Source of the DNA: an uncultured Ruminococcus sp. | GTDB taxonomy: Bacteria; Bacillota; Clostridia; Oscillospirales; CAG-272 | NCBI GenBank assembly: GCA_964494135.1 | Contig: CAZBQN010000005.1 | Coordinates: forward strand, 934-64,933 | Direction of reading: 5' to 3' | DNA: 64,000 nt | In this document: in pieces, positions 9,019 to 39,909 of the stretch | Position numbering within the stretch: position 1 is the stretch's first letter | How the letters are laid out: each line of letters begins with the position of its first letter | Notes under the pieces: generated by a model | Database searches by the model: none | What the model saw: only the letters and a program-made list of their open reading frames with translations | Told to the model about the DNA's origin: nothing | Program-made: the position numbers and the translations under genes

Positions 9019-10206
9019 TTACCTTCCGAGCAGCTTCACCAGTCTCCTTGCCGCCTCCTTCGTGTCCTCGGGACTGCCAAAGGTGGAAAACCGGAAATAG
9101 CCCTCGCCGCACTTACCGAAGCCCTCGCCGGGCGTGCCTACGACCTGAATTTCACGAAGCAGGTAGTCGAAGAACTCCCAGCTTCCCATACCCCCCGGGC
9201 ACTTCATCCATATATAAGGCGCGTTCTTACCGCCGGTGTACCAGATGCCCAGCTCGTCAAGAGCCTCCATCAGGACCTTGGCGTTGTTTTTATAGACACG
9301 GATATTCTCCTTAATCTGCCTCTGTCCCTCGGGCGTAAAGACGGCGGCACCGCCCTTCTGGATAATATACGACACGCCGTTGGTTTTGGTGGTGCGGTTG
9401 CGCACCCACATTGAGTTAAAGCTCATACCGCACCTGCAAAGAGCCTTCGGGATAACGGTATAGCCGAGACGGGTACCCGTAAAGCCTGCGGTCTTTGACA
9501 GCGAGCATATCTCTATGGCGCAGGTCCTCGCTCCCTCAATCTCAAAGATGCTGTGAGGAATGCTCTCGTCCTCGATAAACGCCTCGTACGCCGCGTCGAA
9601 AAGGATAACCGAGCCGTGCGAATTGGCAAAGTCCACCCATCCTTTAAGCTGTGCACGGCTGAAGGTCGCGCCCGTCGGGTTGTTCGGCGAGCAGATGTAG
9701 ATTAAATCCGCCACCGCCCCCTCGTCGGGCTCGGGCAAAAAGCCGTTCTCCTTACCCGAAGCCAGATGAACGATCTCTCTGCCCGCGATAATATTGGCAT
9801 CCACGTACGCAGGGTACGCCGGCTCTATAACCAGAGCTGAACTTGATCTGTCGAACAGGTCAAGGATGTCGCCCAGCTCGTCGCTGGCTCCGCTGGAGAC
9901 AAAGACCTCGTCGGGGTCAAGCAGGACGCCGCGCGCCTCGTAATGCTTCGCAATAATCTCGCGGAGAAAGCCTGCTCCGCACTCGGGCATATATCCGTGA
10001 AAGGACTCCTTTTTCGCCTGGTCATCCACGCCCCCGTGCAGAGCCGTGATAACGCTGTCGCACAAAGGCAGGGAAACGTCGCCGATGCCCATTTTGTACA
10101 GATGCTTATCCGGATGCTCCTTCAGGTACTGCGAAAGCTTTGCGGATATTCCCGCGAAAAGGTAGGAATCCTTCAGATTTGCGTAATTCATATTAGGTGT
10201 AATCAT
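9019..10206 (-). CDS. dapL: LL-diaminopimelate aminotransferase
   Basis: MGIGDVSLP, CSPNNPTGA, FDAAYEAFI, SLSKTAGFTGTRLG (PLP Lys), GTPGEGFG. Adjacent to dapF. Confidence 0.93.
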   Translation of the reverse strand: MITPNMNYANLKDSYLFAGISAKLSQYLKEHPDKHLYKMGIGDVSLPLCDSVITALHGGVDDQAKKESFHGYMPECGAGFLREIIAKHYEARGVLLDPDEVFVSSGASDELGDILDLFDRSSSALVIEPAYPAYVDANIIAGREIVHLASGKENGFLPEPDEGAVADLIYICSPNNPTGATFSRAQLKGWVDFANSHGSVILFDAAYEAFIEDESIPHSIFEIEGARTCAIEICSLSKTAGFTGTRLGYTVIPKALCRCGMSFNSMWVRNRTTKTNGVSYIIQKGGAAVFTPEGQRQIKENIRVYKNNAKVLMEALDELGIWYTGGKNAPYIWMKCPGGMGSWEFFDYLLREIQVVGTPGEGFGKCGEGYFRFSTFGSPEDTKEAARRLVKLLGR

Positions 10207-10994
10207 TCTATCGTATCTCCTTCGTAAACGAACTCACAGGGGCCCGTCATCAATACCGAATAATCGGGAAAGACAGTGATTTTCAGCGTGCCCCCGTCAA
10301 GATGAACCGAAATAGGCTCGCCGGGGTCGCAATAGCCCTTCTTTACCGCCGCCGCCGCAGAGGCGCAGGCTCCCGTGCCGCAAGCCATCGTAACTCCGCT
10401 ACCCCGCTCCCAGACGCGCATCTGCAATTCGCTCCTGTTCATCACTCTGACGAACTCCACGTTCACACCGCCCGGGAAAGCCTCGTGATGCTCAATGACG
10501 GGTCCCAGAGCCGTCAGGGGGGCTGTTTCCATATTATCTGTGAAAATTACCGCGTGGGGATTTCCTACCGAAACCGGCGTACACTCGACACGGGTGCCGC
10601 CTGCGGTAAGTGTCATATCCTCCGAGGGCACTGCGGTGCCCATATCTACGGTAACGCTCCTGACCTTACCGAAGCTTATGCCGAGATCGAGGGTTTTTAT
10701 TCCCGACAAGGTTTCCACGGTCAGTCTTCTTTTATCGGTATAGCCCTTGTCGTAAACGTATTTGCCTACGCAACGAATACCGTTGCCGCACATTTTTGCC
10801 TCGCTGCCGTCGGCGTTGAAAATCCGCATCCTGAAGTCGGCAACCTCCGAGGGGGATATATAGATCATACCGTCAGAGCCTGCGCCGAAGTGCCTGTCGG
10901 AGAGCTTTATTGATAATTCCTCTATATTGTCAGGGACCTCACCGAAAACATACAGATAGTCGTTTCCGAGGCCGTGCATCTTCGTAAAATGCAT
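10203..10994 (-). CDS. dapF: Diaminopimelate epimerase
   Basis: MHFTKMHGLGNDY, MCGNGIRC, VGNPH, ERGSGVTMACGTGA. Start set at 10994 (RBS AAGGAG). Confidence 0.95.
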   Translation of the reverse strand: MHFTKMHGLGNDYLYVFGEVPDNIEELSIKLSDRHFGAGSDGMIYISPSEVADFRMRIFNADGSEAKMCGNGIRCVGKYVYDKGYTDKRRLTVETLSGIKTLDLGISFGKVRSVTVDMGTAVPSEDMTLTAGGTRVECTPVSVGNPHAVIFTDNMETAPLTALGPVIEHHEAFPGGVNVEFVRVMNRSELQMRVWERGSGVTMACGTGACASAAAAVKKGYCDPGEPISVHLDGGTLKITVFPDYSVLMTGPCEFVYEGDTIE

Positions 10995-11079
10995 TTTTAA
11001 TTCTCCTTTTCGTATAGACGGGAGCAAGTATTTTTCATACCTTCAAAAGCCATATTGCCCCCGTCGCTTCTACCGTGCC

Positions 11080-14000
11080 TCATTTGGCATCAATCGTGGA
11101 AATGCCCATTGTAACCTCTTCAAGGACGTCAAGAAGCATTCTGACAGTATCAAGAGAGGTGAGCATAGTGATATTGTTCTGTGCGGCGAGACGGCGGATT
11201 GCCACACCGTCACCGAAATGCTTACCCGACAGAATAGCACGGGTATTTATAACGTAGCTGACGTACCCCTGTCTCAAAGAATCCAGCACTTCCTCACTGC
11301 CCTCGCTGGGCTTATGGAGAAGTCTTGTGCGTATGCCGTGCTCCTTCAGGTACTGCGCGGTCACCGTAGTTGCTTCGATATTGAAGCCCATATTGTAAAA
11401 TCTGCGCACTAAAGGAAGCGTCTCCGCCTTATCCTCGTCGGCAACGCTTACCAACACGGTGCCGTAATTGCGGAGCTTCAGCCCGGAGGCAATCATCGCT
11501 TTGTACATCGCTCGGTGAAGCTTTTTGTCGTAGCCTATCGCCTCGCCGGTCGATTTCATTTCCGGGGACAGGTAGGCATCCATACCGCGGAGCTTTGAGA
11601 AGGAGAAGGCAGGTGCCTTTACGTAATAGCGTTTTTTCTCATCGGGATAAATATCGAATATTCCCTGCTCTGCAAGCGAAACGCCCAAATTAACCATAGT
11701 CGCAATGTCGGCAAGGCTGTAGCCCGTGGCTTTGGACAGGAAGGGCACGGTTCGCGAGGAGCGCGGATTTACCTCTATTATATACACGTCGTCGTGCTCG
11801 TCGACGATAAACTGAATATTGTAAAGTCCTATAATGCCTATCCCAAGCCCCAGCTTTTTGGTATAATCCAAAATCGTGGCCTTCACTCTGTCGGAGATCG
11901 AAAATGTGGGATATACGCTGATAGAGTCGCCCGAATGGATACCAGTCCTCTCAACCAGCTCCATAATACCGGGGACGAAAACCCGCTTGCCGTCGCATAT
12001 AGCGTCGACCTCGACCTCCTTGCCCTTTATATATTTGTCAACCAGCACCGGCTTGTCCTCGTCAATCTCAACGGCGGTTTTCAGATATTCCCTGAGGGCT
12101 TCTTCCTTTGCAACTATCTGCATGGCTCTGCCTCCGAGAACGAAGCTGGGGCGGACGAGCACGGGATAACCAATCTCCGCCGCTGCCTGAACGCCGGCTT
12201 CAATATTCGTCACGGCTCTGCCCTTGGGCTGAGGTATATTCAAATCGGACAAAAGCTTTTCAAACGCATCGCGGTTTTCAGCCTTCTCTATGGCGTCGCA
12301 GTCGGTGCCGATGATTTTCACGCCCCGCTGTGCCAGAGGCTCTGCCAGATTGATGGCCGTCTGACCGCCCAGGGTGGCAATTACTCCCTCCGGTTTTTCA
12401 AGAGCTATGACGTTCATTACGTCCTCGACGCACAGAGGCTCGAAATAGAGCTTGTCAGAGCAGGTGTAATCGGTGGACACGGTTTCCGGGTTATTGTTTA
12501 TGATAATTGCCTCGTAGCCTGCCGCCTTGATTGTCTTGACCGCATGAACGGTGGAATAATCGAACTCCACGCCCTGTCCTATACGGATGGGACCCGAGCC
12601 CAGCACGACGACCTTCTTTTTGTCCGAAACCCGGGACTCGTTTTCCTCCTCGTAGGTGGAATAAAAGTACGGAATATAGCTCTCAAACTCGGATGCGCAG
12701 GTGTCTATCATCTTATATACCGGGAAAATACCGTGCTCCCCGCGCAGCTTGTAAATCTCGGTTTCCTCCCTGCCCCAAAGATATGCAATCTCCTTGTCCG
12801 AGAAGCCCATTTTCTTCGCTTTTCTCAACACGGGTACCGAGTCTTTGCCCTCGGCTATCTCTTTCTCCGCATCGACGATGTTCTTGAGCTTGCGGATGAA
12901 AAGCATATCGATCGCGGTTACGGACGCAATCCTTCCCGCGTCAACACCGCGGCGCAAAAGCTCGGCTATGGCGTAAATGCGGTCGTCTGTACCGATCTTT
13001 ATATACTCCAAAAGCTCGGAGTCCGGAGCACTGTCGAACTTGCGGTTATAGAGATGGTAAAGCCCTATTTCCAAAGAGCGTATGGCTTTGAGCAGGCTCT
13101 CCTCTACCGTGCGTCCGATGCTCATTACCTCTCCCGTCGCCTTCATCTGCGTAGAGAGCGAATTGTTCGCGTCAGCAAACTTGTCGAAGGGAAACCTTGG
13201 CATCTTCGTGACCACGTAGTCAAGGGTTGGCTCAAAGGACGCGGGGGTGTTGGCAATCCTGATTTCGTCAAGCGTCATACCAACGCCGATTTTCGCGGAA
13301 ACTCTCGCTATCGGGTAACCGCTCGCCTTCGATGCCAGGGCGGAAGAGCGCGAAACACGGGGATTTACTTCTATGAGATAATACCGGAAGGAATAAGGGT
13401 CAAGGGCAAACTGCACGTTACAGCCCCCCTCGATCTTCAACGCGCGGATGATCTTCAGCGCGCTGTTCCTCAGCATGTGATACTCCTTGTTCGTCAGCGT
13501 CTGAGAGGGACAGACGACTATGGAGTCGCCGGTATGGATGCCCACCGGATCAATATTTTCCATATTGCATATAGTAATGGCGGTGTCGTTTTTGTCGCGC
13601 ATTACCTCGTATTCTATTTCCTTAAAGCCCTTTATGCTCTTTTCTATCAGCACCTGCCCTACGGGAGAGAGCGACAGGGCGTTTTTCATAAGGGGTACAA
13701 ATTCTTCCTCGTTGTCGGCAAAGCCGCCGCCCGTACCGCCGAGAGTAAAGGCGGGGCGAAGCACTACGGGATATCCGATTTTCTCTGCTATTTTCAACCC
13801 CTCGTCCACACCGTGTGCAATATCCGAGGGAAGCACCGGCTCGCCCAGCTGCTCACACAGCTCCTTAAAAAGCTCTCTGTCCTCGGCGCGCTCAATAGAC
13901 TCACTGCCCGTACCGAGAAGCTCTACACGGCACTCTCTGAGTATTCCCTTCTTCTCAAGTTGCATGGCAAGGTTAAGTCCCGTCTGACCTCCGATACCGG

Positions 14001-14262
14001 GCAGAATTGCATCCGGACGCTCGTAGCGAATTATCTTGGCGATGTATTCAAGGGTCAGAGGCTCCATATACACCTTGTCGGCTATTGAGGTATCCGTCAT
14101 AATGGTAGCGGGGTTGGAGTTGCACAGCACTACCTCGTAGCCCTCCTCTTTCAGGGCGAGGCAAGCCTGTGTGCCGGCGTAGTCGAATTCCGCCGCCTGA
14201 CCTATGACGATAGGTCCGGAGCCAATAACGAGAACCTTTTTTATGTCAGTTCTTTTAGGCAT
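11080..14262 (-). CDS. carB: Carbamoyl-phosphate synthase large subunit
   Basis: [21 protein letters not shown], duplicated ATP-grasp halves, [11 protein letters not shown]-terminal MGS domain. Confidence 0.98.
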
Positions 14263-15348
14263 TGTTCTTTTCCCCTTCCATTATCCCTATGAATTTGTCA
14301 AACAAATACGAGCTGTCCTCCGGTCCCGGAGCGCTTTCGGGATGATACTGCACGCTGAAAATTTTATCCTCACGGCACTCTACACCCTCCACCGTTCCGT
14401 CAAGAATGTTGATATGTGTCGGCGTCAGCCTCGTTGCCCCAAGGCTTTCAAGGTCTACCGCATAGGAGTGATTCTGAGAGGTGATCTCTATTTTGTCGGT
14501 CTCGAGATTGCGCACGGGGTGGTTGCCGCCTCTGTGTCCGAACTTCAATTTATAGGTTTTAGCACCGTATGCCAGCGAAATTACCTGATGTCCGAGGCAA
14601 ATGCCGAAGATAGGGTATTTTCCTCTGATAGCCCTTACCGTTTTGATAACCGGCTGCACGTCTTTCGGGTCGCCCGGTCCGTTTGAGATAAATACTCCGT
14701 CGGGTGACAGACGTTCTATCTCTTTGGCAGGCGTGTTCCACGGAACGACGGTTACGGAACATCCGCGTCTATTCAGCGAGCGGATAATATTCTCTTTCAT
14801 ACCGCAATCAATGGCGACGACATGGTATTTCTCCATCGGAACCCGGGAATAGCGTATGCTTTTACAGCTGACACGGGACACGGCGTCGGTGGGTACGGCG
14901 GCATTCCTTAAAATTTCCAGCCCCTCTTCGAGCGAGGTGTCAACTCCCGTAATCAATACTTTACGTGAGCCGAGGTCGCGTATGGAGCGTGTCAGCTTTC
15001 TCGTATCAATCCCCCACACTCCGGGGATACCGTACTTCTTCATCACCTCGTCAAGGGTTGCCGTGCTTCTGAAGTTTGAGGGCTCGTCGTTATACTCCCT
15101 TACTATCAGCGCGCCTATGGTGGGCGTGCCGGTCTCGTAGTCGTCGTCGCAGACGCCGTAATTGCCAATCAAAGGATAGGTCATTACCACCGCCTGATAG
15201 GTGTAGGACGGGTCGGAGAGTATCTCCTGATAGCCTACCATAGAAGTATTGAAAACTATCTCCAGGACCCTATCGGAGCTGTCGCCGAAGCCGAAGCCCG
15301 TATACTCCTCGCCGTTTTCCAAAATTATCTTTCTGTTGTAGTTTTCTG

Positions 15349-15352
<4 letters not shown>
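14255..15352 (-). CDS. carA: Carbamoyl-phosphate synthase small subunit
   Basis: [31 protein letters not shown]. Confidence 0.97.
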
Positions 15353-20001
<4,649 letters not shown>

Positions 20002-20009
20002 TATTCACC

Positions 20010-21425
20010 TCAGATATTTATATCGGCATGGCTTTCGGCAATTCCGTCAAGCAGAGGCTTTACCTTCGCGAGAAAGGCGTCGACCTGCTCGGGACATCTG
20101 CCTATATATTTGTCCGGTATAAGAAGCGAATTTATCTCTTCTTCTGTCATACCGAAGGCGGGCTCGGCAGCCAGCCTTGCCGTCAGGTCGCACTCCTCGC
20201 CGTCTTTCATTCTTGCGGTGGCCTCCATTGAGCATTTACGGATGAGCTCGTGTATCTTTTGTCTGTCCCCGCCCCGCTTTACCGCCTCCATCATCAGGTT
20301 CTCCGTAGCGATGAAGGGCAGATATTCCCTGACGGTTTTATCGACTATCCTTTCGTTGACGTGAAGTCCGTCGGTAACGTTCTGACAGAGTCTCAGCACG
20401 GCGTCGGCGCACAGGAAGCCCTCGGGCAGAGAGATACGGCGGTTTGCCGAATCGTCAAGCGTTCTCTCCAACCACTGGACCGAGGCGGTCATGGGCGCGT
20501 TAGCGGCGTCAGCCATCAGGTATCTGGAAAGCGAGCATATACGCTCGCTCCTCATGGGATTGCGCTTATACGCCATGGCAGAGGAGCCTATCTGATTTTT
20601 CTCAAAGGGCTCCTCAAGCTGTCTGTCGTGCTGTAAAAGCCGAATATCGTTTGCCATTCTGTACGCGCTCTGCGCTACCGAGGACAGGACGTTAAGTATT
20701 CTCGAATCCACCTTTCTCGGATAGGTCTGCCCCGACACATCAAAGCATTCGTCAAAGCCGAAGTCACGGCAGATGAGCCGATTCATCTCGTCAATTTTTG
20801 AGCCGTCGCCGTCAAAAAGCTCAAGGAAGCTTGCCTCGGTTCCGGTTGTTCCGCGACAGCCGAGGAATTTTATATTTTCTGTCGCAAAGTCTATCTCCCG
20901 AAGGTCGGACAAAAAGTCCTGCATCCACAGCGTCGCGCGCTTGCCCACCGTCACCGGCTGTGCCGGCTGATAATGAGTATAACCCAAGGTGGGCGTGCTC
21001 TTGTATTTTTCCGCGAACCTTGAAAGGTTCAAAAGCACGCCCAGAAGCTCGCCCCTCAGATATCTGAGGGCGTCGCGGTAGATGATAAGGTCGGCGTTGT
21101 CGGTGACGTAACAGCTGGTGGCGCCGAGGTGAATGATGCCCGCGGCTGAGGGTGCTGCCTTGCCGTAAGCGTAGACATGTGCCATAACGTCGTGTCTGAC
21201 TTCCTTTTCACGCTCAGCCACGCACTCGTAGTCAATGTCGTCCGTGTGAGCCTCCAGCTCCTTTATCTGCTCCTCTGTGATGGGAAGACCCAAGGCGCGC
21301 TCTGCCTTTGCGAGAGATACCCAGAGCCTGCGCCAGGTGCCGAAGCGTGTATCGGCGGAAAACAGCTTCAGCATATACTCGGACGCGTAGCGCGAGGACA
21401 GAGGAGATTCGTATTTGTTCGTCAT
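20010..21425 (-). CDS. purB: Adenylosuccinate lyase
   Basis: RHDVMAH, THYQPAQ, GSSAMAYKRNPM. Confidence 0.96.
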   Translation of the reverse strand: MTNKYESPLSSRYASEYMLKLFSADTRFGTWRRLWVSLAKAERALGLPITEEQIKELEAHTDDIDYECVAEREKEVRHDVMAHVYAYGKAAPSAAGIIHLGATSCYVTDNADLIIYRDALRYLRGELLGVLLNLSRFAEKYKSTPTLGYTHYQPAQPVTVGKRATLWMQDFLSDLREIDFATENIKFLGCRGTTGTEASFLELFDGDGSKIDEMNRLICRDFGFDECFDVSGQTYPRKVDSRILNVLSSVAQSAYRMANDIRLLQHDRQLEEPFEKNQIGSSAMAYKRNPMRSERICSLSRYLMADAANAPMTASVQWLERTLDDSANRRISLPEGFLCADAVLRLCQNVTDGLHVNERIVDKTVREYLPFIATENLMMEAVKRGGDRQKIHELIRKCSMEATARMKDGEECDLTARLAAEPAFGMTEEEINSLLIPDKYIGRCPEQVDAFLAKVKPLLDGIAESHADINI

Positions 21426-21472
21426 AATTTACTCCTTTTTCGTTTCCGTCTGCGTTCCTTTGCGCACACCTG

Positions 21473-22747
21473 TCAGCGTATGATTATGCTGTCGCGCTCA
21501 GGACCTACGGAAATATATTTTATGGGGCAGCCGATCTCTTTTTCAATGAACAGAACGTATCTCCTTGCCGCCTCGGGAAGCTCCTCCCAGCTGCGGACAC
21601 CGCTGACGTCGCACCTCCAACCGTCGAAATATTCGATAACCGGCTTTGCACTATCAAGAGCTGTCGGGAAGGGGAAGTAATCTGTCTCCTCGCCGTCAAC
21701 GAGGTACTTCGTGCATACGGGGATTTTGTCCATATACGACAGCACGTCAAGCTTTGTCAGCGCAATCGCCGTTGCCGCCTGAACCTCTACTCCGTACCTC
21801 GTCGCCACGATGTCAATAGGTCCGACCCGGCGGGGTCTGCCCGTCTTTGCTCCGTACTCGGCACCTGCCGCACGAAGCGCCTCGGCTTCTTCCCCGAACA
21901 TCTCACATACAAATGGACCTTCGCCCACGCAGGTGGAATAAGCCTTCACCACGCCTACGACGTCGTCGATTTTCGCTCCGGGCAGACCCGAGCCTATGGG
22001 CGCGTACGCCGCTATGGTACTCGACGAGGTGGTATAGGGGTAAATTCCGTAATCTATATCGCGCAGTGAGCCCAGCTGTGCTTCAAACAAAATGCTCTTG
22101 CCCTCAGTGGCTGCCTCACCGAGAAATTTGCCCGTATCGCATACGTAAGGCTTGATTTTCTCGCAGGCATCACAAATCCAGCTCTCCAGCATTTCCACGG
22201 TATAGGGTCTTGCACCGTACACCCGGGTCAAGGTCAGATTTTTCCATTCGAGAAGATCCGCAAGGTGTGCCCTCAGCTTCTCGGGATAGAACAGCTCGCC
22301 CGCAAGCACCGTCTTCTTCTGATACTTGTCCGAATAGAAGGGAGCTATGCCCTGCTTCGTTGAGCCGTACTTTTTATCCGCCAGTCTTTCCTCCTCAAGG
22401 GCGTCAAGCTCTCTGTGCCAAGGGAGAAGAAGCGAGGCTCTGTCGCTGATTTTAAGGTTGTCCGGGGTAATAGCAACTCCCTGTGACGTAACCTGTCCCA
22501 TTTCGGCAAGAAGGTTCTCGGGGTCAAGAGCAACCCCGTTCCCGAGAATATTGACGACTCCCTTTCTGAAAATTCCCGAGGGGAGAAGATGCAATGCGAA
22601 TTTTCCGTATTCGTTTATTACCGTGTGGCCTGCGTTTCCGCCTCCCTGGTAACGGATTACCACGTCGTAAGCCTCGGTGAGCAGGTCGACCATTCTGCCT
22701 TTTCCCTCGTCACCCCAGTTGATTCCGACAATTGCACAGTTTGACAT
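21473..22747 (-). CDS. purA: Adenylosuccinate synthetase
   Basis: WGDEGKG, GGGNAGHT, DYGIYPYTTSS, TGRPRR, LTKLDVL. Confidence 0.97.
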   Translation of the reverse strand: MSNCAIVGINWGDEGKGRMVDLLTEAYDVVIRYQGGGNAGHTVINEYGKFALHLLPSGIFRKGVVNILGNGVALDPENLLAEMGQVTSQGVAITPDNLKISDRASLLLPWHRELDALEEERLADKKYGSTKQGIAPFYSDKYQKKTVLAGELFYPEKLRAHLADLLEWKNLTLTRVYGARPYTVEMLESWICDACEKIKPYVCDTGKFLGEAATEGKSILFEAQLGSLRDIDYGIYPYTTSSSTIAAYAPIGSGLPGAKIDDVVGVVKAYSTCVGEGPFVCEMFGEEAEALRAAGAEYGAKTGRPRRVGPIDIVATRYGVEVQAATAIALTKLDVLSYMDKIPVCTKYLVDGEETDYFPFPTALDSAKPVIEYFDGWRCDVSGVRSWEELPEAARRYVLFIEKEIGCPIKYISVGPERDSIIIR

Positions 22748-22768
22748 ATCAACTATCCTTTCCCCGTT

Positions 22769-23482
22769 TTATATATTGTCCGTCAGGCGTTTCATAACCT
22801 CGGCGTAAGCGTCCTCGACACCTCCAAGGTCTCTGCGGAAGCGGTCCTTGTCCAGCTTCTGTCCCGTCTTTATATCCCACAGACGGCAGGTGTCGGGGCT
22901 TATCTCATCGGCGAGAACTACATCCCCGCCTGACAGCTTTCCGAACTCCAGCTTGAAATCAACGAGAGTTATGCCGCAGGATTTCCAGAAGGCTTTTAGC
23001 TCGTCGTTTACCGTAAAGGAGTACTTTTTGATAATTTCGATCTCCTCTCCGGTTGCAAGACCCAAAGCCAGAGCGTGATATTCGTTCAGGAGCGGGTCGC
23101 CCAGCTCGTCGTTCTTATAGGAAAACTCAATAGTCGGAGAAGCAAATACTATACCCTCTTCCACGCCGTATCTCTTTGCAAAGGAGCCTGCCGAGACGTT
23201 TCTGATAATGACCTCAAGCGGGACTATGGAAACCTTTTTGACCAAGGTTTCTCTGTCGCTCAGCTCCTCGACGTAGTGGGTGGGGACGCCGGCTTTTTCA
23301 AGCCTTTGCATGAGCAGATTACTCATTCTGTTGTTGATAACACCCTTGCCTGCAACAGTGCCTTTTTTCAGTCCGTTGAACGCGGTGGCGTCATCCTTGT
23401 ACGACACGATAAGAAGCTCCGGGTCATCGGTGGCAAAGACCTTTTTCGCCTTCCCCTCGTACAGCTGTTCTCTCTTTTCCAT
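22769..23482 (-). CDS. purC: SAICAR synthetase
   Basis: LYEGKAK, PLEVIIRN, LVDFKLEFG, LADEISPDTCRLWD, LDKDRFR. Confidence 0.97.
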   Translation of the reverse strand: MEKREQLYEGKAKKVFATDDPELLIVSYKDDATAFNGLKKGTVAGKGVINNRMSNLLMQRLEKAGVPTHYVEELSDRETLVKKVSIVPLEVIIRNVSAGSFAKRYGVEEGIVFASPTIEFSYKNDELGDPLLNEYHALALGLATGEEIEIIKKYSFTVNDELKAFWKSCGITLVDFKLEFGKLSGGDVVLADEISPDTCRLWDIKTGQKLDKDRFRRDLGGVEDAYAEVMKRLTDNI

Positions 23483-23509
23483 GGTAGTTCTCCTTTATCT
23501 CGAATATTA

Positions 23510-23593
23510 TAAACAAAAATAAAAGCGGACAATCGGCACCGACAAAAACGAACGTATCATCTACGCCCGTCAAATCGGAAGACGCCATTGCCC
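23510..23593 (-). promoter_or_regulatory. ANTAR-type hairpin plus terminator in the purC leader
   Basis: GGC-AATGGC-GTC (23592-23581). GGGCAATGGC can instead pair with GCCGATTGTCC (23537-23527), which is followed by GCTTTTATTTTTG. Confidence 0.75.
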
Positions 23594-23603
23594 TCACGCG
23601 ATT

Positions 23604-23632
23604 ATTATACACGCGCGGAGCTTGTTTGTCAA
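23604..23632 (-). promoter_or_regulatory. sigma-A promoter of the purC operon
   Basis: TTGACA-N17-TATAAT. Confidence 0.9.
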
Positions 23633-23644
23633 CAAAAAAATAAA

Positions 23645-23703
23645 TAAAAAAACAAAAAAACAAAACGGATACAGACAAGGAGAAAATCCCGGTCTACACC
23701 CGT
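23645..23703 (-). terminator. Intrinsic terminator after asnB
   Basis: ACGGGTGTAGAC / GTCTGTATCCGT stem, followed by a long T tract. Confidence 0.75.
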
Positions 23704-23769
23704 TTTTCACATCAAAATCCAAAACAAAGTCTTTGTTTTTAACCGACGACCACCGGTATCGGTCAATTA

Positions 23770-25353
23770 TTATTTTCCGCTGTCGCCGTAGTTGGAAAGT
23801 ACTCTTGCCGACGGGTCGTTTACGTTACAGCCCTCCCAGGTTTTGTTGGGCATCCAGAAGTCTGCGACCATCTGTGACTGACCGGGATAATACTTCTCAA
23901 ATATCTCCCGATACAAGAGCGATTCTTTGGTAAAGGGGGAGGCGTGTACGTATTTCTTGCGTTTTTCCTCAAATTCCCCGTCGGTATATTTGCTCTCGGC
24001 GTACTCCTTCAGATAGTCAACCATAGAGTGTCCGACGGCATCCGAGAACGCCGCCTTCTCACGAAAGAGTATTTCGTCGGGCAGATAACCGCCATCCTCA
24101 AAGGCATGGCGAAGCAGGTACTTACCCTTGCCGTATTTGTTCATCTTGAGCTCCGGGTCAATGCTCATGACGTATCTGACGAAATCCAGATCGCCGAAGG
24201 GCACTCTGGCCTCCAGAGAGTTTACGGAAATACAGCGGTCTGCGCGGAGCACGTCGTACATATGAAGCTCCCGCACCCGCTTCTGCGACTCGCGCTGAAA
24301 TTCCGCGGCGCTCGGCGCGAAATCGGTATATTTATACCCGAACAGCTCATCCGAAATCTCACCGGTAAGAAGCACTCGAATGTCGGTTCTCTCATGGATA
24401 GCTTTACAGATAAGATACATACCCATGCTTGCTCTTATAGTGGTAATATCGTAGGTGCCGAGAAGCTCAATTACCCCCTCCAGCGAGGACAAAACCTCAT
24501 CCGGTGTCATATAAATCTCGGTATGGTCGCTGCCTATGTAGTCAGCAACCTGCTTTGCGTATTTGAGGTCAATCGCGTCCTCGCTCATACCTATGGCAAA
24601 GGTTTTTATGGGAGTTTTGCTCTTTCTCTGCGCTATGGCGCAAACCAGGGATGAGTCCAGCCCTCCGGATAGGAGAAATCCCACCTTCGCGTCTGCGACA
24701 AGGCGTTTTTCAACGCCCGAGATCAGCTTGTCGTGTATTTTGCGGCACACCGCGTCAAGTCCGTCGCCGCTGACCTTATCAACCGCCGCAATATCGGTAT
24801 AGCGGATAAACTCACCGCCTTTGTAGTAGCATCCGGGAGGAAAGGGCAGGATTTTTTCGACTATTCCTACTAAGTTCTTAGGCTCGCTGGCAAAAACGAT
24901 TACCCCTTTTTCGTCATAACCGTAGTACAGAGGCCGGATACCTATCGGGTCTCTTGACGCAATATATTCCTTATTCTCGCCGTCGTATATGATAAGGGCG
25001 TATTCCGCGTCAAGCATACCGAACATATCCGTGCCGTACTCGCGGTACATTGGCAGCAGTATTTCGCAGTCGCTGTCGCTTGAGAAGGTATAGCCTTTTT
25101 TCTTCAAGTCCTCGCGGATTTTCTCAAAGCCGTAGATTTCACCGTTGCATACAACGTAATCCGAGCCGAGGCGAAAGGGCTGCATACCCTCGGGGGTCAA
25201 GCCCATAATTGCCAGGCGGTGAAAACCGAGCAAGCCGGCACCCGTGTCAGCTAATTTACTGTCATCGGGACCTCTGGATACCGTGCGCCCGAAGGATGTG
25301 ACAAATTTGTCAATATCGGTACATTCACCGCAGTAGCCTATGATTGAACACAT
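23770..25353 (-). CDS. asnB: Asparagine synthase B (glutamine-hydrolysing)
   Basis: Starts MCSIIG (Ntn Cys2). RGPD, HRLAI, NGEIY, LSGGLDSS, EARVPF. Confidence 0.95.
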   Translation of the reverse strand: MCSIIGYCGECTDIDKFVTSFGRTVSRGPDDSKLADTGAGLLGFHRLAIMGLTPEGMQPFRLGSDYVVCNGEIYGFEKIREDLKKKGYTFSSDSDCEILLPMYREYGTDMFGMLDAEYALIIYDGENKEYIASRDPIGIRPLYYGYDEKGVIVFASEPKNLVGIVEKILPFPPGCYYKGGEFIRYTDIAAVDKVSGDGLDAVCRKIHDKLISGVEKRLVADAKVGFLLSGGLDSSLVCAIAQRKSKTPIKTFAIGMSEDAIDLKYAKQVADYIGSDHTEIYMTPDEVLSSLEGVIELLGTYDITTIRASMGMYLICKAIHERTDIRVLLTGEISDELFGYKYTDFAPSAAEFQRESQKRVRELHMYDVLRADRCISVNSLEARVPFGDLDFVRYVMSIDPELKMNKYGKGKYLLRHAFEDGGYLPDEILFREKAAFSDAVGHSMVDYLKEYAESKYTDGEFEEKRKKYVHASPFTKESLLYREIFEKYYPGQSQMVADFWMPNKTWEGCNVNDPSARVLSNYGDSGK

Positions 25354-25420: not shown

Positions 25421-27163
25421 TTATTCCACATCCTGAAGTGCGTCGTAGCCTTCTTCTCCGGTACGAACCTTCACGACGTTTTCAATATCGTAAACGAAAA
25501 TCTTGCCGTCACCGATATGTCCGGTGTAAAGGGCCTTCTTTGCCGTTTCTATAACCTCGCGGACGGGTACCTTGCTGACGACGATGTCAACCTGTACCTT
25601 CGGCAAAAGATTTGCCTCCACGGGGACTCCGCGGTAGTATTCGGGCTTACCCTTCTGCATACCGCAGCCGAGAACGTGGGATACCGTCATTCCGGTAATG
25701 CCTATGCCCATCATTGCCGTTTTCAGAGTTTCAAGCCTTGCTTCCTTGCATATAATCTCAACCTTGGTGAACTTATGCGCCCCTTCTGCAAAGGAAGGAA
25801 CTTTCTTCACCGGAACAGCCTCTGCCGCGGGAACCTCGCCTGCAACAACCGTTGCCCCCTCGTAGCCGTAATCAACACTCTCAACTGCGGGAACAAAGTC
25901 AGCGTACGCGCTGGGAAGACCGTGCTCGGTAAGGTCAAGACCCTTAATCTGTTCTTCGTCGGATGCGCGAAGACCGATTGTTTTCTTGATTATAAAGAAT
26001 ACGAGAGTGATAGTAGCCGCAGTCCATGCGAGAATTGCAAGGATACCTACGAGCTGCTTGCCGAAAAGCTCAAAGCTTCCGGTATAGAAAAGACCGTTAA
26101 GACCTGCGGGAGCGGCAGGGTTTGCCAAAAGACCTACTGCCAGAGTACCCCATACACCGTTGACGAGGTGTACGCCGACAGCACCCACGGGGTCGTCTAT
26201 ATGAAGCTTCAAATCGAGAACCTCAACCGCGACGACGACGAGTATTCCCGAAACAACGCCGACGACTATTGAGCCGAGAGCATCAAGGGCGTCACAGCCT
26301 GCGGTAATACCGACAAGACCTGCCAGGGATGCGTTAAGGCACATCGACACGTCGGGCTTGCCGTTCTTAATCCAAGTGAAGAGCAAAGTAGTACAGGTGG
26401 CGACCGCGGGAGCAATTGTGGTAGTCAGGAATATAGATGCGAGCATGGAGCCGTCGGTTGCCGCCGCGCCGTTGAAGCCGTACCAGCCGAACCAGAGAAT
26501 AAAGCAGCCAAGGGCGCCGAGAGTAACCGAGTGGCCGGGAATTGCGTTGACCTTAGTCACCTTGCCCGTCGCCTTATCCTTGACGTACTTTCCGATTCGT
26601 GGACCGACCATAATGGCACCGATAAGAGCCATAAGACCGCCGACAGAGTGAATAGCGGCAGAGCCTGCGAAATCGTGAAAGCCCCACTGCGCGAGCCAGC
26701 CGTTCGGGTTCCACACCCAGCCTGCCTCAATAGGATAAATTACCAGTGAAATCACTGCGGAATAAACGCAGTATGATATGAACTTCGTTCTCTCCGCCAT
26801 AGCTCCCGATACTATCGTAGCAGCGGTAGCGCAGAACACGAGATTGAATACGAAGCTGGAAGCGTTCGTCTGAATAAAGCCGCCGAAGTCGGCGAATATA
26901 TTCATATTCGGAACGCCGATAATTCCGAGAACATAGTCCTCCGCCATCATAAGGCTGAAGCCCAAAAGCACGAACACAACCGTACCGATGCAGAAGTCCA
27001 TCAGGTTCTTCATAATGATGTTTCCCGCATTCTTCGCGCGGGTAAATCCGGTTTCAACCATAGCAAAGCCGGCTTGCATAAAGAACACGAGAGCTGCTCC
27101 TATCAGGAACCAGACGCCGAACACCTCTTCGCCTACCAGCTTAATAACATCAGATTCAAGCAT
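25421..27163 (-). CDS. amtB: Ammonium transporter fused to a C-terminal P-II domain
   Basis: Amt motifs FMQAGFAMVE, DFAGSAAIH and DDPVGAVGVH. P-II tail GMQKG...YRG...LLPK...TGHIGDGKIFV...VRTGE. Confidence 0.93.
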   Translation of the reverse strand: MLESDVIKLVGEEVFGVWFLIGAALVFFMQAGFAMVETGFTRAKNAGNIIMKNLMDFCIGTVVFVLLGFSLMMAEDYVLGIIGVPNMNIFADFGGFIQTNASSFVFNLVFCATAATIVSGAMAERTKFISYCVYSAVISLVIYPIEAGWVWNPNGWLAQWGFHDFAGSAAIHSVGGLMALIGAIMVGPRIGKYVKDKATGKVTKVNAIPGHSVTLGALGCFILWFGWYGFNGAAATDGSMLASIFLTTTIAPAVATCTTLLFTWIKNGKPDVSMCLNASLAGLVGITAGCDALDALGSIVVGVVSGILVVVAVEVLDLKLHIDDPVGAVGVHLVNGVWGTLAVGLLANPAAPAGLNGLFYTGSFELFGKQLVGILAILAWTAATITLVFFIIKKTIGLRASDEEQIKGLDLTEHGLPSAYADFVPAVESVDYGYEGATVVAGEVPAAEAVPVKKVPSFAEGAHKFTKVEIICKEARLETLKTAMMGIGITGMTVSHVLGCGMQKGKPEYYRGVPVEANLLPKVQVDIVVSKVPVREVIETAKKALYTGHIGDGKIFVYDIENVVKVRTGEEGYDALQDVE

Positions 27164-29410: not shown

Positions 29411-29457
29411 AAAAACGGCGCCTCTCCTGCTTAATCCGCAAGAAAGACGCCTTTGCC
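29411..29457 (-). promoter_or_regulatory. Second ANTAR-type hairpin plus terminator in the GSIII leader
   Basis: AAGGC-AAAGGC-GTCTT. GGCGTCTTTCTTGC pairs with GCAGGAGAGGCGCC, followed by GTTTTT. Confidence 0.8.
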
Positions 29458-29523
29458 TTTTCTTCTATTTATTAATTAAATGCACTGCAAAGATAAATTG
29501 ACACAAAAGACTGCCACAAGTGT

Positions 29524-29591: not shown

Positions 29592-29620
29592 ATTATACAC
29601 CCCGAAAAACCGTTTGTCAA
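29592..29620 (-). promoter_or_regulatory. sigma-A promoter of glnN-amtB-asnB
   Basis: TTGACA-N17-TATAAT. Confidence 0.9.
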
Positions 29621-29681: not shown

Positions 29682-29710
29682 TTGACAATTTGCAAGTTTG
29701 GTGCTATAAT
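29682..29710 (+). promoter_or_regulatory. sigma-A promoter of the glutamate synthase operon
   Basis: TTGACA-N17-TATAAT. Confidence 0.9.
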
Positions 29711-29722
29711 GCTTGCATATAT

Positions 29723-29786
29723 GAGCAAAGGCGTTCATAGATAGCGGCGACTGCCGTTTTTTCGTGAGCCTTTGCTCTTTTCGTTT
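29723..29786 (+). promoter_or_regulatory. ANTAR-type hairpin plus terminator in the GOGAT leader
   Basis: GAGC-AAAGGC-GTTC. GAGCAAAGGC pairs perfectly with GCCTTTGCTC (29768-29777), followed by TTTTCGTTT. Confidence 0.8.
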
Positions 29787-32408: not shown

Positions 32409-32553
32409 GGCGAAAAAAGTTATACAAGCCCGAACCCTTTTAATCAGCCGCAAGTGCCTTTAAAGGAAAACATAAACCTTTGTTGTCAAATAACTTGACA
32501 CGGGCCCCGGCATCGGCAAAGGTGCGTGCGGTATCAGGAGGAATATCAAAGGA

Positions 32554-32997
32554 ATGAAGCGAATATATGTAAATGAAAAATGGTGTCTCGGATGTCACCT
32601 GTGTGAATACAACTGTGCATTTGCAAACTCGGGGCTCTCCGACATGTCAGCGGCACTGAAGGGTAAGCCCATCTACCCCAGAATACACATTGAGGGAGAC
32701 GAGAGGGTTTCCTATGCGGTTTCCTGCCGTCACTGTACCGACCCAATATGTCAGAAAAGCTGTATTGCGGGCGCGATAACGGCAGAGGACGGAGTGGTGC
32801 GCATCAACAAAAGCAAGTGCGTGGGCTGTCACACCTGCGTTCTCGTCTGCCCCTACGGTGCGCTGGCAGCCTCCCCCGAGGGAGTTATGCAGAAATGCGA
32901 GCTGTGCCTGAAGAACAGCTGCGGTGAGCCCGCATGTGTCAAGGGCTGTCCCAACAACGCCATCGTATATGAGGAAAGGGGTGAAGAAAATGGCTGA
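32554..32997 (+). CDS. 4Fe-4S dicluster protein (CooF/HydN-like)
   Basis: CLGCHLCEYNC, CRHCTDPICQKSC, CVGCHTCVLVCPYG, KCELC...PACVKGCP. Confidence 0.9.
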   Translation: MKRIYVNEKWCLGCHLCEYNCAFANSGLSDMSAALKGKPIYPRIHIEGDERVSYAVSCRHCTDPICQKSCIAGAITAEDGVVRINKSKCVGCHTCVLVCPYGALAASPEGVMQKCELCLKNSCGEPACVKGCPNNAIVYEERGEENG

Positions 32998-36233: not shown

Positions 36234-36818
36234 TTGAGCTTGCAAGAGCATGTTTACAGCGTGATGATAGTTTCCGCCTCGGAAGCCTTCAATTCCGCAT
36301 TGACCCCATTGCTTCCCGACTTCAAATTCACACCCGTCCGCATAGAAACCAGCGTTAATTCGGCAAAACGCACCCTGGCTGACCACCCATACGATTTTAT
36401 AGTAATCAATTCTCCCCTGCCCGACGACACGGGTGTCCGCTTTGCCATTGACGTTTCGGGGCTGAAAAGCTCGGTGGCGCTTCTCATGGTGCGCTCGGAT
36501 ATATACGCCGCCACCCAGAACAAGGTTGCCGAGCACGGCGTCTACGTACTGCCGAAGCCCACGTCAAAGCCCATTATAACCCAGGCGATAGACTGGATGA
36601 CAGCCACACTGGAAAGGCTCAAAAAGTTTCAGAAGAAAACAATGTCCACCGAGGAGAAAATGGAGGAGATACGTATCGTCAACCGTGCAAAGTGGGTATT
36701 GATAGACAGGCTGAAAATGACCGAGCAGGAGGCGCACCGCCATATTGAAAAGCAGGCGATGGACAGATGCACCTCAAAGCGCGAGGTCGCAGAAGAGATA
36801 ATAAAAATCTACACATAA
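36234..36818 (+). CDS. Pseudo-receiver + ANTAR RNA-binding antiterminator (NitR/AmiR-like)
   Basis: TTG start, RBS GAAAGGAGG. Receiver-like DFIVINSPLP. ANTAR motif IVNRAKWVLI...TEQEAHRHIEKQAMDR. Confidence 0.9.
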   Translation: MSLQEHVYSVMIVSASEAFNSALTPLLPDFKFTPVRIETSVNSAKRTLADHPYDFIVINSPLPDDTGVRFAIDVSGLKSSVALLMVRSDIYAATQNKVAEHGVYVLPKPTSKPIITQAIDWMTATLERLKKFQKKTMSTEEKMEEIRIVNRAKWVLIDRLKMTEQEAHRHIEKQAMDRCTSKREVAEEIIKIYT

Positions 36819-38714: not shown

Positions 38715-38817
38715 CCGAGCAACGCGAGGATTTCATCCGCCTGCGGCGGATTTCACACGTCTATGACGTATTTCACCCGAGCATATCGAGGATTTCATGT
38801 TCCGGGGGCTGCTTCAC
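38715..38817. repeat. Array of short hairpin + ATTTCA units (REP-like)
   Basis: ATTTCA at 38730, 38750, 38770 and 38792. Each is preceded by a small inverted repeat (for example CCGCC-TGC-GGCGG and ACGTC-TAT-GACGT). Confidence 0.7.
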
Positions 38818-38964: not shown

Positions 38965-39909
38965 TCAATACAAATCCTCGTAAATTCCGCCGGGGATAAA
39001 CTCGCGGATAAGCGAATTGTCGGGCACGAGGCTCTCATCCACCTCGGTTATATACTCAAGAGCTGCGCGAACTCTTCTTGCATACTCATTCTCGCGGCAG
39101 ACCTCCGCCGTCAAAAGCGACTCGGCAAAGGGCTTCATAACTCCCAGCTCAAACATATGGAAGGTATCGAAGGCTATGTCGGCAAAGGGCTTGAAGGGAT
39201 AGAGATAAATATCCTCCGAGTCAAGAACCGCGCGCCACATAGAGAGGGTCCGCTCCGCAGAGGAAGCGCGGTAAATGCTGTCCCTGACAAGACGGCGCAG
39301 AAATCTGACCTTCCTGCCCGAAAGAATACGCTTGCCGTCCATATTTATGTTAGTGGAAACGCTGACGAAAAGACGCAAAACTCCCACCCTCGGTCCGTCG
39401 TATATCTTCGGATTGAGCGCGTGCAAGCCCTCTATGATAACACAGCCGTTTGGCATCGACATAGGCTCGGAAAGCTCGACACGCCTCCCCAGCTTGAAGT
39501 CGTATTTAGGCAGACGGAAGGGCTCGGCGTTTGAAATTCTGCGAACCAGCTCACTGATCTCGGAAAGGTGGAGCGACTCGGGGCACTCGAAATCCCGCTC
39601 TCCGTTTTTCTGTCTCGGGTAATCCGGGTCGGTCGAATCGCGGTAAAAGTCGTCCAGCGACACCACGATGCTGTCCTCGCCCCGCGCTATCAGCGCGTCC
39701 TTGATAAGATTTGCAGAGGTAGTCTTGCCCGAACCGGAGGGACCGGCGAGAAGCAGAACTCTTATATTCTTATTTCCCACTATATAATCCGCAATCTCCC
39801 CTACTCTTTTGTGAAAGGCGCGCTCCGCCTCTGCAATTGCTCCCTCGGGGCTCATTTCAATTGTGCTATTCAATTTATTAACGTTAAGTTCAGCCATGTT
39901 GTACTCCAT
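38965..39909 (-). CDS. Uridine kinase-like nucleoside kinase
   Basis: LAGPSGSGKTT, SLDDFY, IIEGLHALN, RFLRRLVRD. Confidence 0.8.
   Translation of the reverse strand: MEYNMAELNVNKLNSTIEMSPEGAIAEAERAFHKRVGEIADYIVGNKNIRVLLLAGPSGSGKTTSANLIKDALIARGEDSIVVSLDDFYRDSTDPDYPRQKNGERDFECPESLHLSEISELVRRISNAEPFRLPKYDFKLGRRVELSEPMSMPNGCVIIEGLHALNPKIYDGPRVGVLRLFVSVSTNINMDGKRILSGRKVRFLRRLVRDSIYRASSAERTLSMWRAVLDSEDIYLYPFKPFADIAFDTFHMFELGVMKPFAESLLTAEVCRENEYARRVRAALEYITEVDESLVPDNSLIREFIPGGIYEDLY

Follow-up and report, generated by a model that had tools for sequence, protein, structure and literature searches.

A candidate single-hexaloop ANTAR-type attenuator ahead of a purine, pyrimidine and lysine operon in an uncultured Ruminococcus

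The stretch of DNA analysed here, 64,000 nucleotides long and referred to in the following as the window, carries on its minus strand an operon of ten genes, all of them with NCBIfam equivalog matches above cut-off; the description given in the initial annotation, that of a purine, pyrimidine and lysine operon, is thus borne out. The genes are separated by gaps of no more than about 65 nt, or overlap, and the last of them, dapL, codes for LL-DAP aminotransferase. Upstream of the operon, on the same strand, lie glnN (type III glutamine synthetase), an amt-PII domain fusion and asnB, while the genes for glutamate-synthase-like subunits (gltB-like), glnA, the gene of a 194-aa ANTAR protein and lysA are divergent from the purC strand. 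According to standard biochemistry, eight of the ten products of the purC operon use or complete the donation of nitrogen by glutamine, aspartate or glutamate: the glutamine amide is used by the products of guaA, pyrG, purF and carAB, the amino nitrogen of aspartate or glutamate by those of purC, purA and dapL, and the product of purB completes the donation from aspartate. Some genes of the operon (pyrG, guaA and purA) are probably essential, and its control must therefore be leaky or modulatory; modulation rather than an on/off switch is to be expected. The operon and the features found between asnB and purC are the following:

9019-23482, minus strand: operon purC-purA-purB-guaA-pyrG-purF-carA-carB-dapF-dapL
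23480-23482, minus strand: purC start codon ATG (23482-23480), preceded by the Shine-Dalgarno sequence AAAGGAG (23496-23490)
23511-23524, minus strand: U tract UUUUAUUUUUGUUU of the leader terminator
23527-23593, minus strand: leader terminator rod of 26 bp, in both the MFE and the centroid fold
23547-23571, minus strand: apical hairpin of the rod, GACGGGCGUA-GAUGA-UACGUUCGUU, with a 10-bp stem, -11.3 kcal/mol
23576-23598, minus strand: purC EL hairpin, candidate antiterminator, 23-nt RNA CGUGAGGGCAAUGGCGUCUUCCG
23604-23632, minus strand: purC promoter, perfect sigma-70 consensus TTGACA-N17-TATAAT
23662-23706, minus strand: intrinsic terminator of the upstream asnB, a 19-bp hairpin with a U-rich run at 23661-23636
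23770, minus strand: end of asnB

The asnB terminator, which folds at -38 kcal/mol (z = -3.97 for 23636-23775, minus strand), separates the purC unit from that of glnN, amt and asnB. The purC promoter consists of the -35 box TTGACA (23632-23627), a 17-nt spacer and the -10 box TATAAT (23609-23604); promoters of this perfect form occur three times in the 64 kb, against 0.01 expected. A hairpin which we call EL, with the core GAGGGC[AAUGGC]GUCUUC (23595-23578), begins about 8 nt past the -10 box, some 3 nt into the predicted transcript; its hexaloop AAUGGC (23589-23584) has A1 and G4 and is closed by a C-G pair, followed by a G.U pair. Both the perfect promoter and the hexaloop hairpin after it had been pointed out in the initial annotation, and both were located on the minus strand, at 23632-23578; the string GGC-AATGGC-GTC is likewise present (23592-23581), but the stem, which had been given as 3 bp, is of 6 bp.

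The 5' arm and loop of this hairpin also form the 5' strand of the rod, at the base of which GGGCAAUGGCG (23593-23583) pairs with UGCC-G-AUUGUCC (23538-23527); this is the alternative pairing that had been proposed from the first reading, and the T-rich tail reported with it is present as well. The middle of the rod is formed by CCGAU (23578-23574) and GUCGG (23543-23539), and its end is followed by GC and then by the U tract, which ends 28 nt ahead of the purC start codon. The rod (23593-23527) thus has the composition of an intrinsic terminator, namely a G+C-containing hairpin with a U tract directly after it. As the MFE structure of the 121-nt leader it has -37.7 kcal/mol (z = -2.8), a stability that 200 shuffled sequences all fail to reach. 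The apical hairpin was also considered as an independent strong terminator and rejected, only UUUGU being found after its 10-bp stem; it is unlisted in the consensus scan.

By structure prediction, the EL hairpin and the downstream terminator of the purC leader are mutually exclusive, in keeping with the earlier view of two alternative structures, the rod being the MFE fold and the EL hairpin the alternative. When the hairpin is enforced, the last 16 nt or so ahead of the U tract are left unpaired, at -22.7 compared to -33.0 kcal/mol; in the folding model, this is the geometry that an antiterminator needs. Since the terminator fold is favoured over the antiterminated one by about 10 kcal/mol, protein binding or kinetics must bring about the switch. 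The purC copy of the hairpin (-8.2 kcal/mol) is more stable than the other three of the window (-3.6 to -6.4 kcal/mol), and this unusual stability may, we infer, result in a higher basal read-through.

In Firmicutes, purine genes are controlled by guanine/adenine, ZTP and PRPP riboswitches and by PurR acting at the PurBox; the purC leader has in common with these systems the position of the control point, in the leader or promoter ahead of pur genes, and differs from them in that neither a riboswitch of this kind nor a PurBox was detected in it. The absence of a guanine riboswitch or PurBox, already noticed on first reading, holds: Rfam 15, applied to the whole window at gathering level, gives no match in the purC leader, and with the threshold relaxed to E up to 10, positions 23300-23900 again yield no known riboswitch or leader, the best matches being unrelated and having E above 2; weak matches to the L20-leader, FsrA and a frameshift-site family are attributed to chance. 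PurBox-like words (consensus AWWWCCGAACWWT, up to two mismatches) number 37 in the window compared to 29.7 expected, that is, without enrichment; none is found upstream of the purC -35 box, and the sole match in the leader, with two mismatches, falls inside the terminator strand. No GlnR/TnrA box (TGTNAN7TNACA) is found near the three perfect promoters of the window; a single perfect GlnR/TnrA palindrome is present elsewhere, at 32484-32500. Additional control of the purC operon, for example by a PurR encoded elsewhere, may exist.

The EL hairpin is present in four copies in the window, always after one of its only three perfect promoters: two copies precede glnN-amt/PII-asnB, one precedes the gltB-like..glnA-ANTAR-lysA unit and one precedes purC. 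The nitrogen link made in the initial annotation is thereby supported, the same element heading the glnN and gltB operons. The leader of the gltB-like gene has its perfect promoter at 29682-29710 (plus strand) and a terminator rod that extends to about 29776. The copies other than that of purC, and the regulator gene to which we return below, are:

29438-29465, minus strand: EL hairpin 2, glnN leader; a 14-bp terminator (29451-29417) begins inside its loop
29560-29587, minus strand: EL hairpin 1, glnN-amt/PII-asnB leader, after the perfect promoter 29620-29592, with its own terminator
29716-29743, plus strand: EL hairpin of the gltB-like..glnA-ANTAR-lysA leader, with the class II stem AUGAGC/GUUCAU
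36234-36818, plus strand: gene of the ANTAR-domain regulator, directly 3' of glnA (Pfam PF03861, 63.8 bits, 1.2e-17; cut-off 27.3 bits)

Two 28-nt models of the element, R1 and R2, give four matches in the window, at 23.6-31 bits, the next best being at 16 bits. For the covariance model R2, trained on 36 EL copies from elsewhere, with neither the window nor its closest ortholog in the training set, the only sites are those of the four leaders (23.6-30.2 bits; next match 15.9 bits), and the purC hairpin scores 23.6 bits, with E = 3e-4 for the window.

The distribution of the element was further analysed in 80 species-level PurC loci, each taken with 10 kb on either side. These loci are of two types, and EL is confined to the nitrogen-cluster type, with the gene order (glnN-amt-asnB-)purC-purA-purB-guaA-pyrG-purF-carAB; none was found in the classical purE-purC-purF loci among the 80. 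EL lies immediately 5' of purC in 13 loci, while in at least eight others purC follows glnN(-amt)(-asnB) without a leader of its own, under the EL-led leader of glnN; in two loci the element precedes the gene for NADP-glutamate dehydrogenase. Among the carriers are Oscillospiraceae-like MAGs, Allobaculum stercoricanis (L004), Emergencia, Eubacterium saphenum and a Thermotaleaceae MAG. In L004, from the cultured strain DSM 13633, the units are ANTAR-glnA-gltB, glnN-asnB behind one EL, and purC-pyrG-purF-carAB behind two. Homologs of the ANTAR protein are encoded close to EL in nine PurC loci, and in five (L023, L037, L040, L052 and L060) an ANTAR-glnA pair is divergent from the adjoining EL-led purC.

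The closest known systems are the ANTAR-target antiterminator RNAs (Ramesh et al. 2012; PMC3369931), which are bound by EutV in E. faecalis (eutP/G/S/A), by NasR in K. oxytoca (nasF) and by AmiR in P. aeruginosa (amiE). In the seed alignment of the same work (Figure S1), the P1 hairpin of nasF is GCC[AAUGGC]GGC and its P2 hairpin GGAU[AAAGGC]GUCC, P1 of both eutP and eutG is C[AAUGGC]G, and P2 of eutA is GC[AAAGGC]GC. The purC hairpin shares its C[AAUGGC]G with P1 of three validated targets, nasF, eutP and eutG, the [AAAGGC]GUC of the EL family is identical to P2 of nasF, and the 13-nt eut motif AGCAANGRRGCUY fits EL apart from pair-compatible changes. As in the targets of EutV, NasR and AmiR, the hexaloop has A1 and G4 and a C-G closing pair, the hairpin overlaps the 5' strand of a terminator, the genes downstream are those of nitrogen metabolism, and an ANTAR gene is found nearby.

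A canonical target is a tandem of P1 and P2, with a linker of 5-12 nt in eut and of 2-25 nt in later searches. Within 45 nt on either side of all four EL hairpins of the window there is no second A1/G4 hexaloop hairpin of at least 3 bp, and over the copies of all loci a second A1/G4 hexaloop occurs near 14 of 54, compared to 15.2 expected, that is, at the level of chance. EL is therefore a single-hexaloop variant, and of the earlier proposal of an ANTAR-type leader, the A1/G4 hexaloop, its predicted mutual exclusion with the terminator and the ANTAR gene stand; the single hexaloop departs from the canonical dual hairpin. Unlike the EutV, NasR and AmiR targets, EL offers a single hexaloop per terminator and lies right at the start of the predicted transcript. 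Its terminator usually starts inside the loop, as it does at P2 of the canonical targets; in the purC and gltB leaders of the window, the 5' arm and loop are used instead, unlike the canonical arrangement, where it is the 3' half of P2.

In the crystal structure of EutV bound to RNA (Walshe et al. 2022; PMC8934654), the ANTAR dimer contacts a single hexaloop, which is proposed as the minimal binding unit, although antitermination by EutV requires both hairpins with a fixed linker; single-hexaloop sites were predicted in the same work, and expected to serve in sequestration, a setting in which no advancing polymerase limits the time for binding. In contrast to this expectation, the single hexaloops of the window appear, judging from their predicted folds, to drive antitermination.

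The closest solved relatives of the ANTAR protein encoded at 36234-36818 in the PDB are Rv1626, AmiR and EutV. Aligned to Rv1626, it has an Asn at the position of the phospho-acceptor Asp (nine of ten ANTAR homologs, from the window and related loci, have N here, and that of L018 has S), and its score with Pfam Response_reg is 21.1, below the cut-off of 30.2. As the phospho-acceptor Asp is missing, the receiver is read as a pseudo-receiver, and the protein does not belong with the receivers of the EutV/Rv1626 type; from its sequence, it would not be switched by phosphorylation. The Lys equivalent to Lys149 of EutV is kept, while the stacking Tyr164 of EutV is replaced by His, as in AmiR.

AmiR and NasT are pseudo-receiver ANTAR regulators that are controlled by a partner protein (AmiC and NasS, respectively), and by analogy the ANTAR protein of the window, predicted like them to be independent of phosphorylation, is probably switched by a partner too. 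Unlike the genes of AmiR and NasT, its gene has no adjoining amiC- or nasS-like gene; the conserved neighbour is glnA, and it may be speculated that the glnA product (GS) or the PII domain is the partner. In solventogenic Clostridium, ANTAR-mediated antitermination of nitrogen genes has been modelled for the arrangement glnA-nitR; the window resembles it in that the ANTAR gene is directly 3' of glnA and glutamate synthase genes belong to the cluster, and to our knowledge no link of glnA-nitR to nucleotide genes has been made. The ANTAR gene, a candidate for the trans-acting antiterminator of EL, is itself inside the EL-led gltB..glnA-ANTAR-lysA unit, a location which suggests positive autoregulation.

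Taken as a whole, these features make it probable that the purC leader attenuates transcription in a protein-dependent, ANTAR-type manner, in which an ANTAR protein binds the 5' hexaloop hairpin and allows read-through, and that the operon is co-regulated with ammonium assimilation. Transcription would begin at the consensus-strength purC promoter, and the first 20 nt or so of the RNA would fold into the EL hairpin. If nothing held the hairpin, the strand 23543-23527 would invade it and complete the 26-bp rod next to the U tract, and RNA polymerase would terminate before purC. The active ANTAR regulator would bind the hexaloop hairpin via A1, G4 and the C-G closing pair and so block the invasion; the 3' strand beside the U tract would then stay unpaired, and the polymerase would read through from purC to dapL. 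We infer that the binder is the ANTAR protein, that binding leads to read-through and that the signal, nitrogen limitation, is passed on by a partner protein. Since the same element would control glnN-amt/PII-asnB and gltB..glnA-ANTAR-lysA, the purC operon would belong to a nitrogen regulon, and most likely nucleotide synthesis here follows nitrogen status and not the level of purines.

The same switch could in principle be operated by another RNA-binding protein or by a small ligand, for example glutamine, which would read the EL hairpin as a regulatory RNA. The ANTAR protein is a predicted binder, EL differs from canonical ANTAR targets in its single hexaloop, and its invariant G.U pair and conserved loop GGC could represent another kind of contact; nevertheless, its loop and closing pair are identical to those of ANTAR sites validated biochemically, and the cluster includes an ANTAR gene both in the window and in the nine PurC loci mentioned, directly beside an EL-led purC in five of them. 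As for a ligand, a hairpin of 18 nt is too small for the known metabolite aptamers, and the glutamine riboswitch families of Rfam are unmatched. This explanation is accordingly considered unlikely.

In an ungapped alignment of 41 leader copies of EL (alignment A1), a stem of 6-7 bp surrounds the hexaloop, the commonest loop being AAAGGC; the positions A12, A13, G15 and G16 do not vary, and neither do the C-G pair that closes the loop and the G.U pair after it. Stem cells are paired to 88.5%, compared to 79.8% in shuffled alignments (none of 500 reaches the observed value) and to 42-58% in slid controls, and the covariation score is 0.361 compared to 0.186 in the shuffles (again 0 of 500). Three stem pairs switch jointly between two classes, AAGGC/GUCUU in glnN/purC leaders and AUGAGC/GUUCAU in gltB leaders. 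The covariation, read from the alignment, supports an RNA hairpin; the compensatory changes, which mostly separate the two sequence classes, may go back to a small number of events in evolution. By a simple test, nucleotides of EL take part in a hairpin directly ahead of a U tract in at least 37 of 55 copies, and most failures are due to false early U tracts.

Conservation was also followed in orthologous purC leaders, taken from near-identical PurC proteins found by homolog search, an exact-sequence look-up of the window PurC having returned no record. Where PurC is 83-99% identical (L201, L204-207, L001 and L009), both hairpin and rod are kept, as the proposal made on first reading would require. 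The consensus structure of the rod is kept in five orthologous leaders, through changes that are one-sided and wobble-compatible, with 0 double compensatory changes; its apical hairpin is conserved in the closest relatives and missing from L009. In L001, L207 and L009 a second EL with a terminator follows in tandem, and the window purC leader has none. Motif matches within coding sequence were discarded because they reflect conserved protein; they fall in purA, in an ATP-grasp motif of the carB/purD-like kind and, in many loci, in purC codons at about position 10134, and in a metagenome scan with the 17-mer GGGCAATGGCGTCTTCC, among the at least 120 matches listed, none is upstream of purC; these are chance matches in unrelated contigs.

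Another possible view is that of a structured 5' UTR without regulation, in which a leaky terminator, or a hairpin that confers stability at the 5' end, does no more than set the level of expression, its likeness to an ANTAR target being a coincidence. Hairpins at the 5' terminus can stabilise mRNA in Firmicutes, and EL could act in this way on an operon whose housekeeping genes need constant expression. A model built independently of the window, however, finds EL in its 64 kb at the four leaders of the nitrogen cluster only; in many genera the element is conserved, with covariation, before nitrogen-related operons only, and its systematic overlap with terminators suits a switch and not a stabiliser. 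We therefore regard an unregulated leader as distinctly improbable. A repressor of the nitrogen regulon that binds the word GGCAANGGCGUC at +5 to +25 as an operator in the DNA, with incidental RNA structures, is hardly credible: although EL is just 3' of the promoter in three cases of the window, a typical position for a repressor, second copies are found 75-125 nt further along from the promoter (29465-29438 in the window; L002, L004, L006, L007 and L010), the orientation always follows transcription, the arms covary via G.U and A-U, the invariant G.U would be a mismatch in a DNA palindrome, and the element is coupled to terminators in the at least 37 of 55 copies given above.

The preferred reading of an ANTAR-type attenuator can be extended beyond the window, at about even chances, to a distinct class of single-hexaloop, 5'-terminal ANTAR attenuators in gut and rumen Clostridia and at least one member of the Erysipelotrichaceae, with a non-phosphorylatable regulator beside glnA and a regulon defined by the use of nitrogen donors and not by pathway. 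Such a regulon would comprise the ammonium-assimilation genes together with an operon in which the steps of purine, pyrimidine and lysine synthesis that use up glutamine or aspartate are brought together (purC, purA, purB, guaA, pyrG, purF, carAB and dapL), and its members would be mostly enzymes that draw on the glutamine amide or on the amino nitrogen of aspartate or glutamate. If this is true, antitermination can do with one hexaloop, against the rule of two hairpins that was drawn from EutV, and the mechanistic model based on EutV needs to be widened.

Control of nitrogen genes by ANTAR proteins is already known; published lists of targets include PII, amt, the urea and nitrate systems, nitrogenase and the glutamate, glutamine and arginine synthases, and the published supplementary tables contain an asparagine synthase and a lysA homologue and no pur or pyr genes. 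The EL targets differ from these lists in that purine, pyrimidine and lysine genes are among them. A limited literature search returned neither a link of ANTAR proteins to purine or pyrimidine genes nor single-hexaloop attenuators like EL; as far as this literature goes, the extension to nucleotide and lysine genes and the single hexaloop are new. Among the genome-wide searches for ANTAR targets that were accessible, two hairpins were required, and because of this requirement such searches would miss the EL class. In a multi-omics study of the rumen (2026; PMC13196213), nitrogen regulators of the E. coli type were found to be missing in many dominant species; the purC locus with its EL element is a concrete candidate for the missing nitrogen control in gut and rumen Clostridia, and with it nitrogen control would reach those reactions in the making of nucleotides and lysine for which glutamine or aspartate is spent.

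The 28-nt models R1 and R2 provide a simple handle for mapping the regulon in metagenomes. The element can also be traced in the window by word counts: the word GCAANGGCGT is over-represented, with 38 matches at up to one mismatch compared to 17 expected, and three of its six exact matches are located in the leaders of glnN (two) and of the gltB-like gene (one).

The perfect promoter sequence TTGACA-N17-TATAAT occurs only three times in the 64 kb of the window, against 0.01 occurrences expected, and all three copies drive nitrogen units under the control of the element, the small hexaloop RNA hairpin overlapping an intrinsic terminator:

23604-23632, minus strand, perfect promoter
29592-29620, minus strand, perfect promoter
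29682-29710, plus strand, perfect promoter

This coincidence suggests that initiation at the three promoters is strong and constitutive, control being exerted at elongation.

The number of attenuators preceding purC varies among orthologous leaders; a single element with its terminator is found in the window and at L201 and L204-206 (loci around PurC homologs of other genomes), whereas in the close relatives L001, L207 and L009 a second, tandem element and terminator (L001 2471-2498; L009 335-362; compared with 23510-23483 of the window) lies between the first attenuator and purC, a difference suggesting that an attenuator module was gained or lost recently. In the minimum free energy fold of the window's purC leader there is weak pairing, within 23524-23487 of the minus strand, between the terminator U tract (CUUUUAUUUU) and the Shine-Dalgarno region of purC (GAGAUAAAGG); this predicted pairing might slightly affect the translation of read-through transcripts, or be incidental.

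The purC leaders of L005, L024 and L048 carry variant hairpins, e.g., GAUG[GCAAUGG]CAUC and AGAC[GAAAGGU]GUCU, each with a loop of 7 nt (in brackets), and here too the hairpin is the 5' strand of the terminator; since these variants escape R1, the 28-nt covariance model of the element, the element counts are lower bounds. The regulon is widened by copies of the same hairpin-plus-terminator element preceding the gene for NADP-specific glutamate dehydrogenase in two related genomes (L003 2645-2672; L030 2669-2696). A weak element-like match of 16 bits within the window (4990-5017, plus strand), antisense within the first ORF listed below, is probably due to chance.

Other features of the window are the following:

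1197-6407, minus strand, large ORF of 1736 aa
7534-8628, plus strand, gene convergent with the purC operon end, its product combining an HTH-like N-terminus with histidine-kinase-like ATPase and STAS-like DUF4325 domains
25421-27163, minus strand, ammonium transporter carrying, fused at its C-terminus (residues about 466-575), a GlnB/K-like PII domain
32484-32500, plus strand, perfect palindrome TGTCAAATAACTTGACA, fitting the GlnR/TnrA-type pattern TGTNAN7TNACA, upstream of the gene for a 147-aa 4Fe-4S protein (32554-32997) within the glutamate-synthase-like cluster
50416-53193, minus strand, large ORF of 925 aa, with no match in an NCBIfam search at 1e-10
38725-38800, minus strand, match to the Gut-1 RNA of Rfam (RF01706; 53 bits, gathering score 50), directly 3' of a PRK/uridine-kinase-family gene (38965-39909, minus strand) and convergent with lysA
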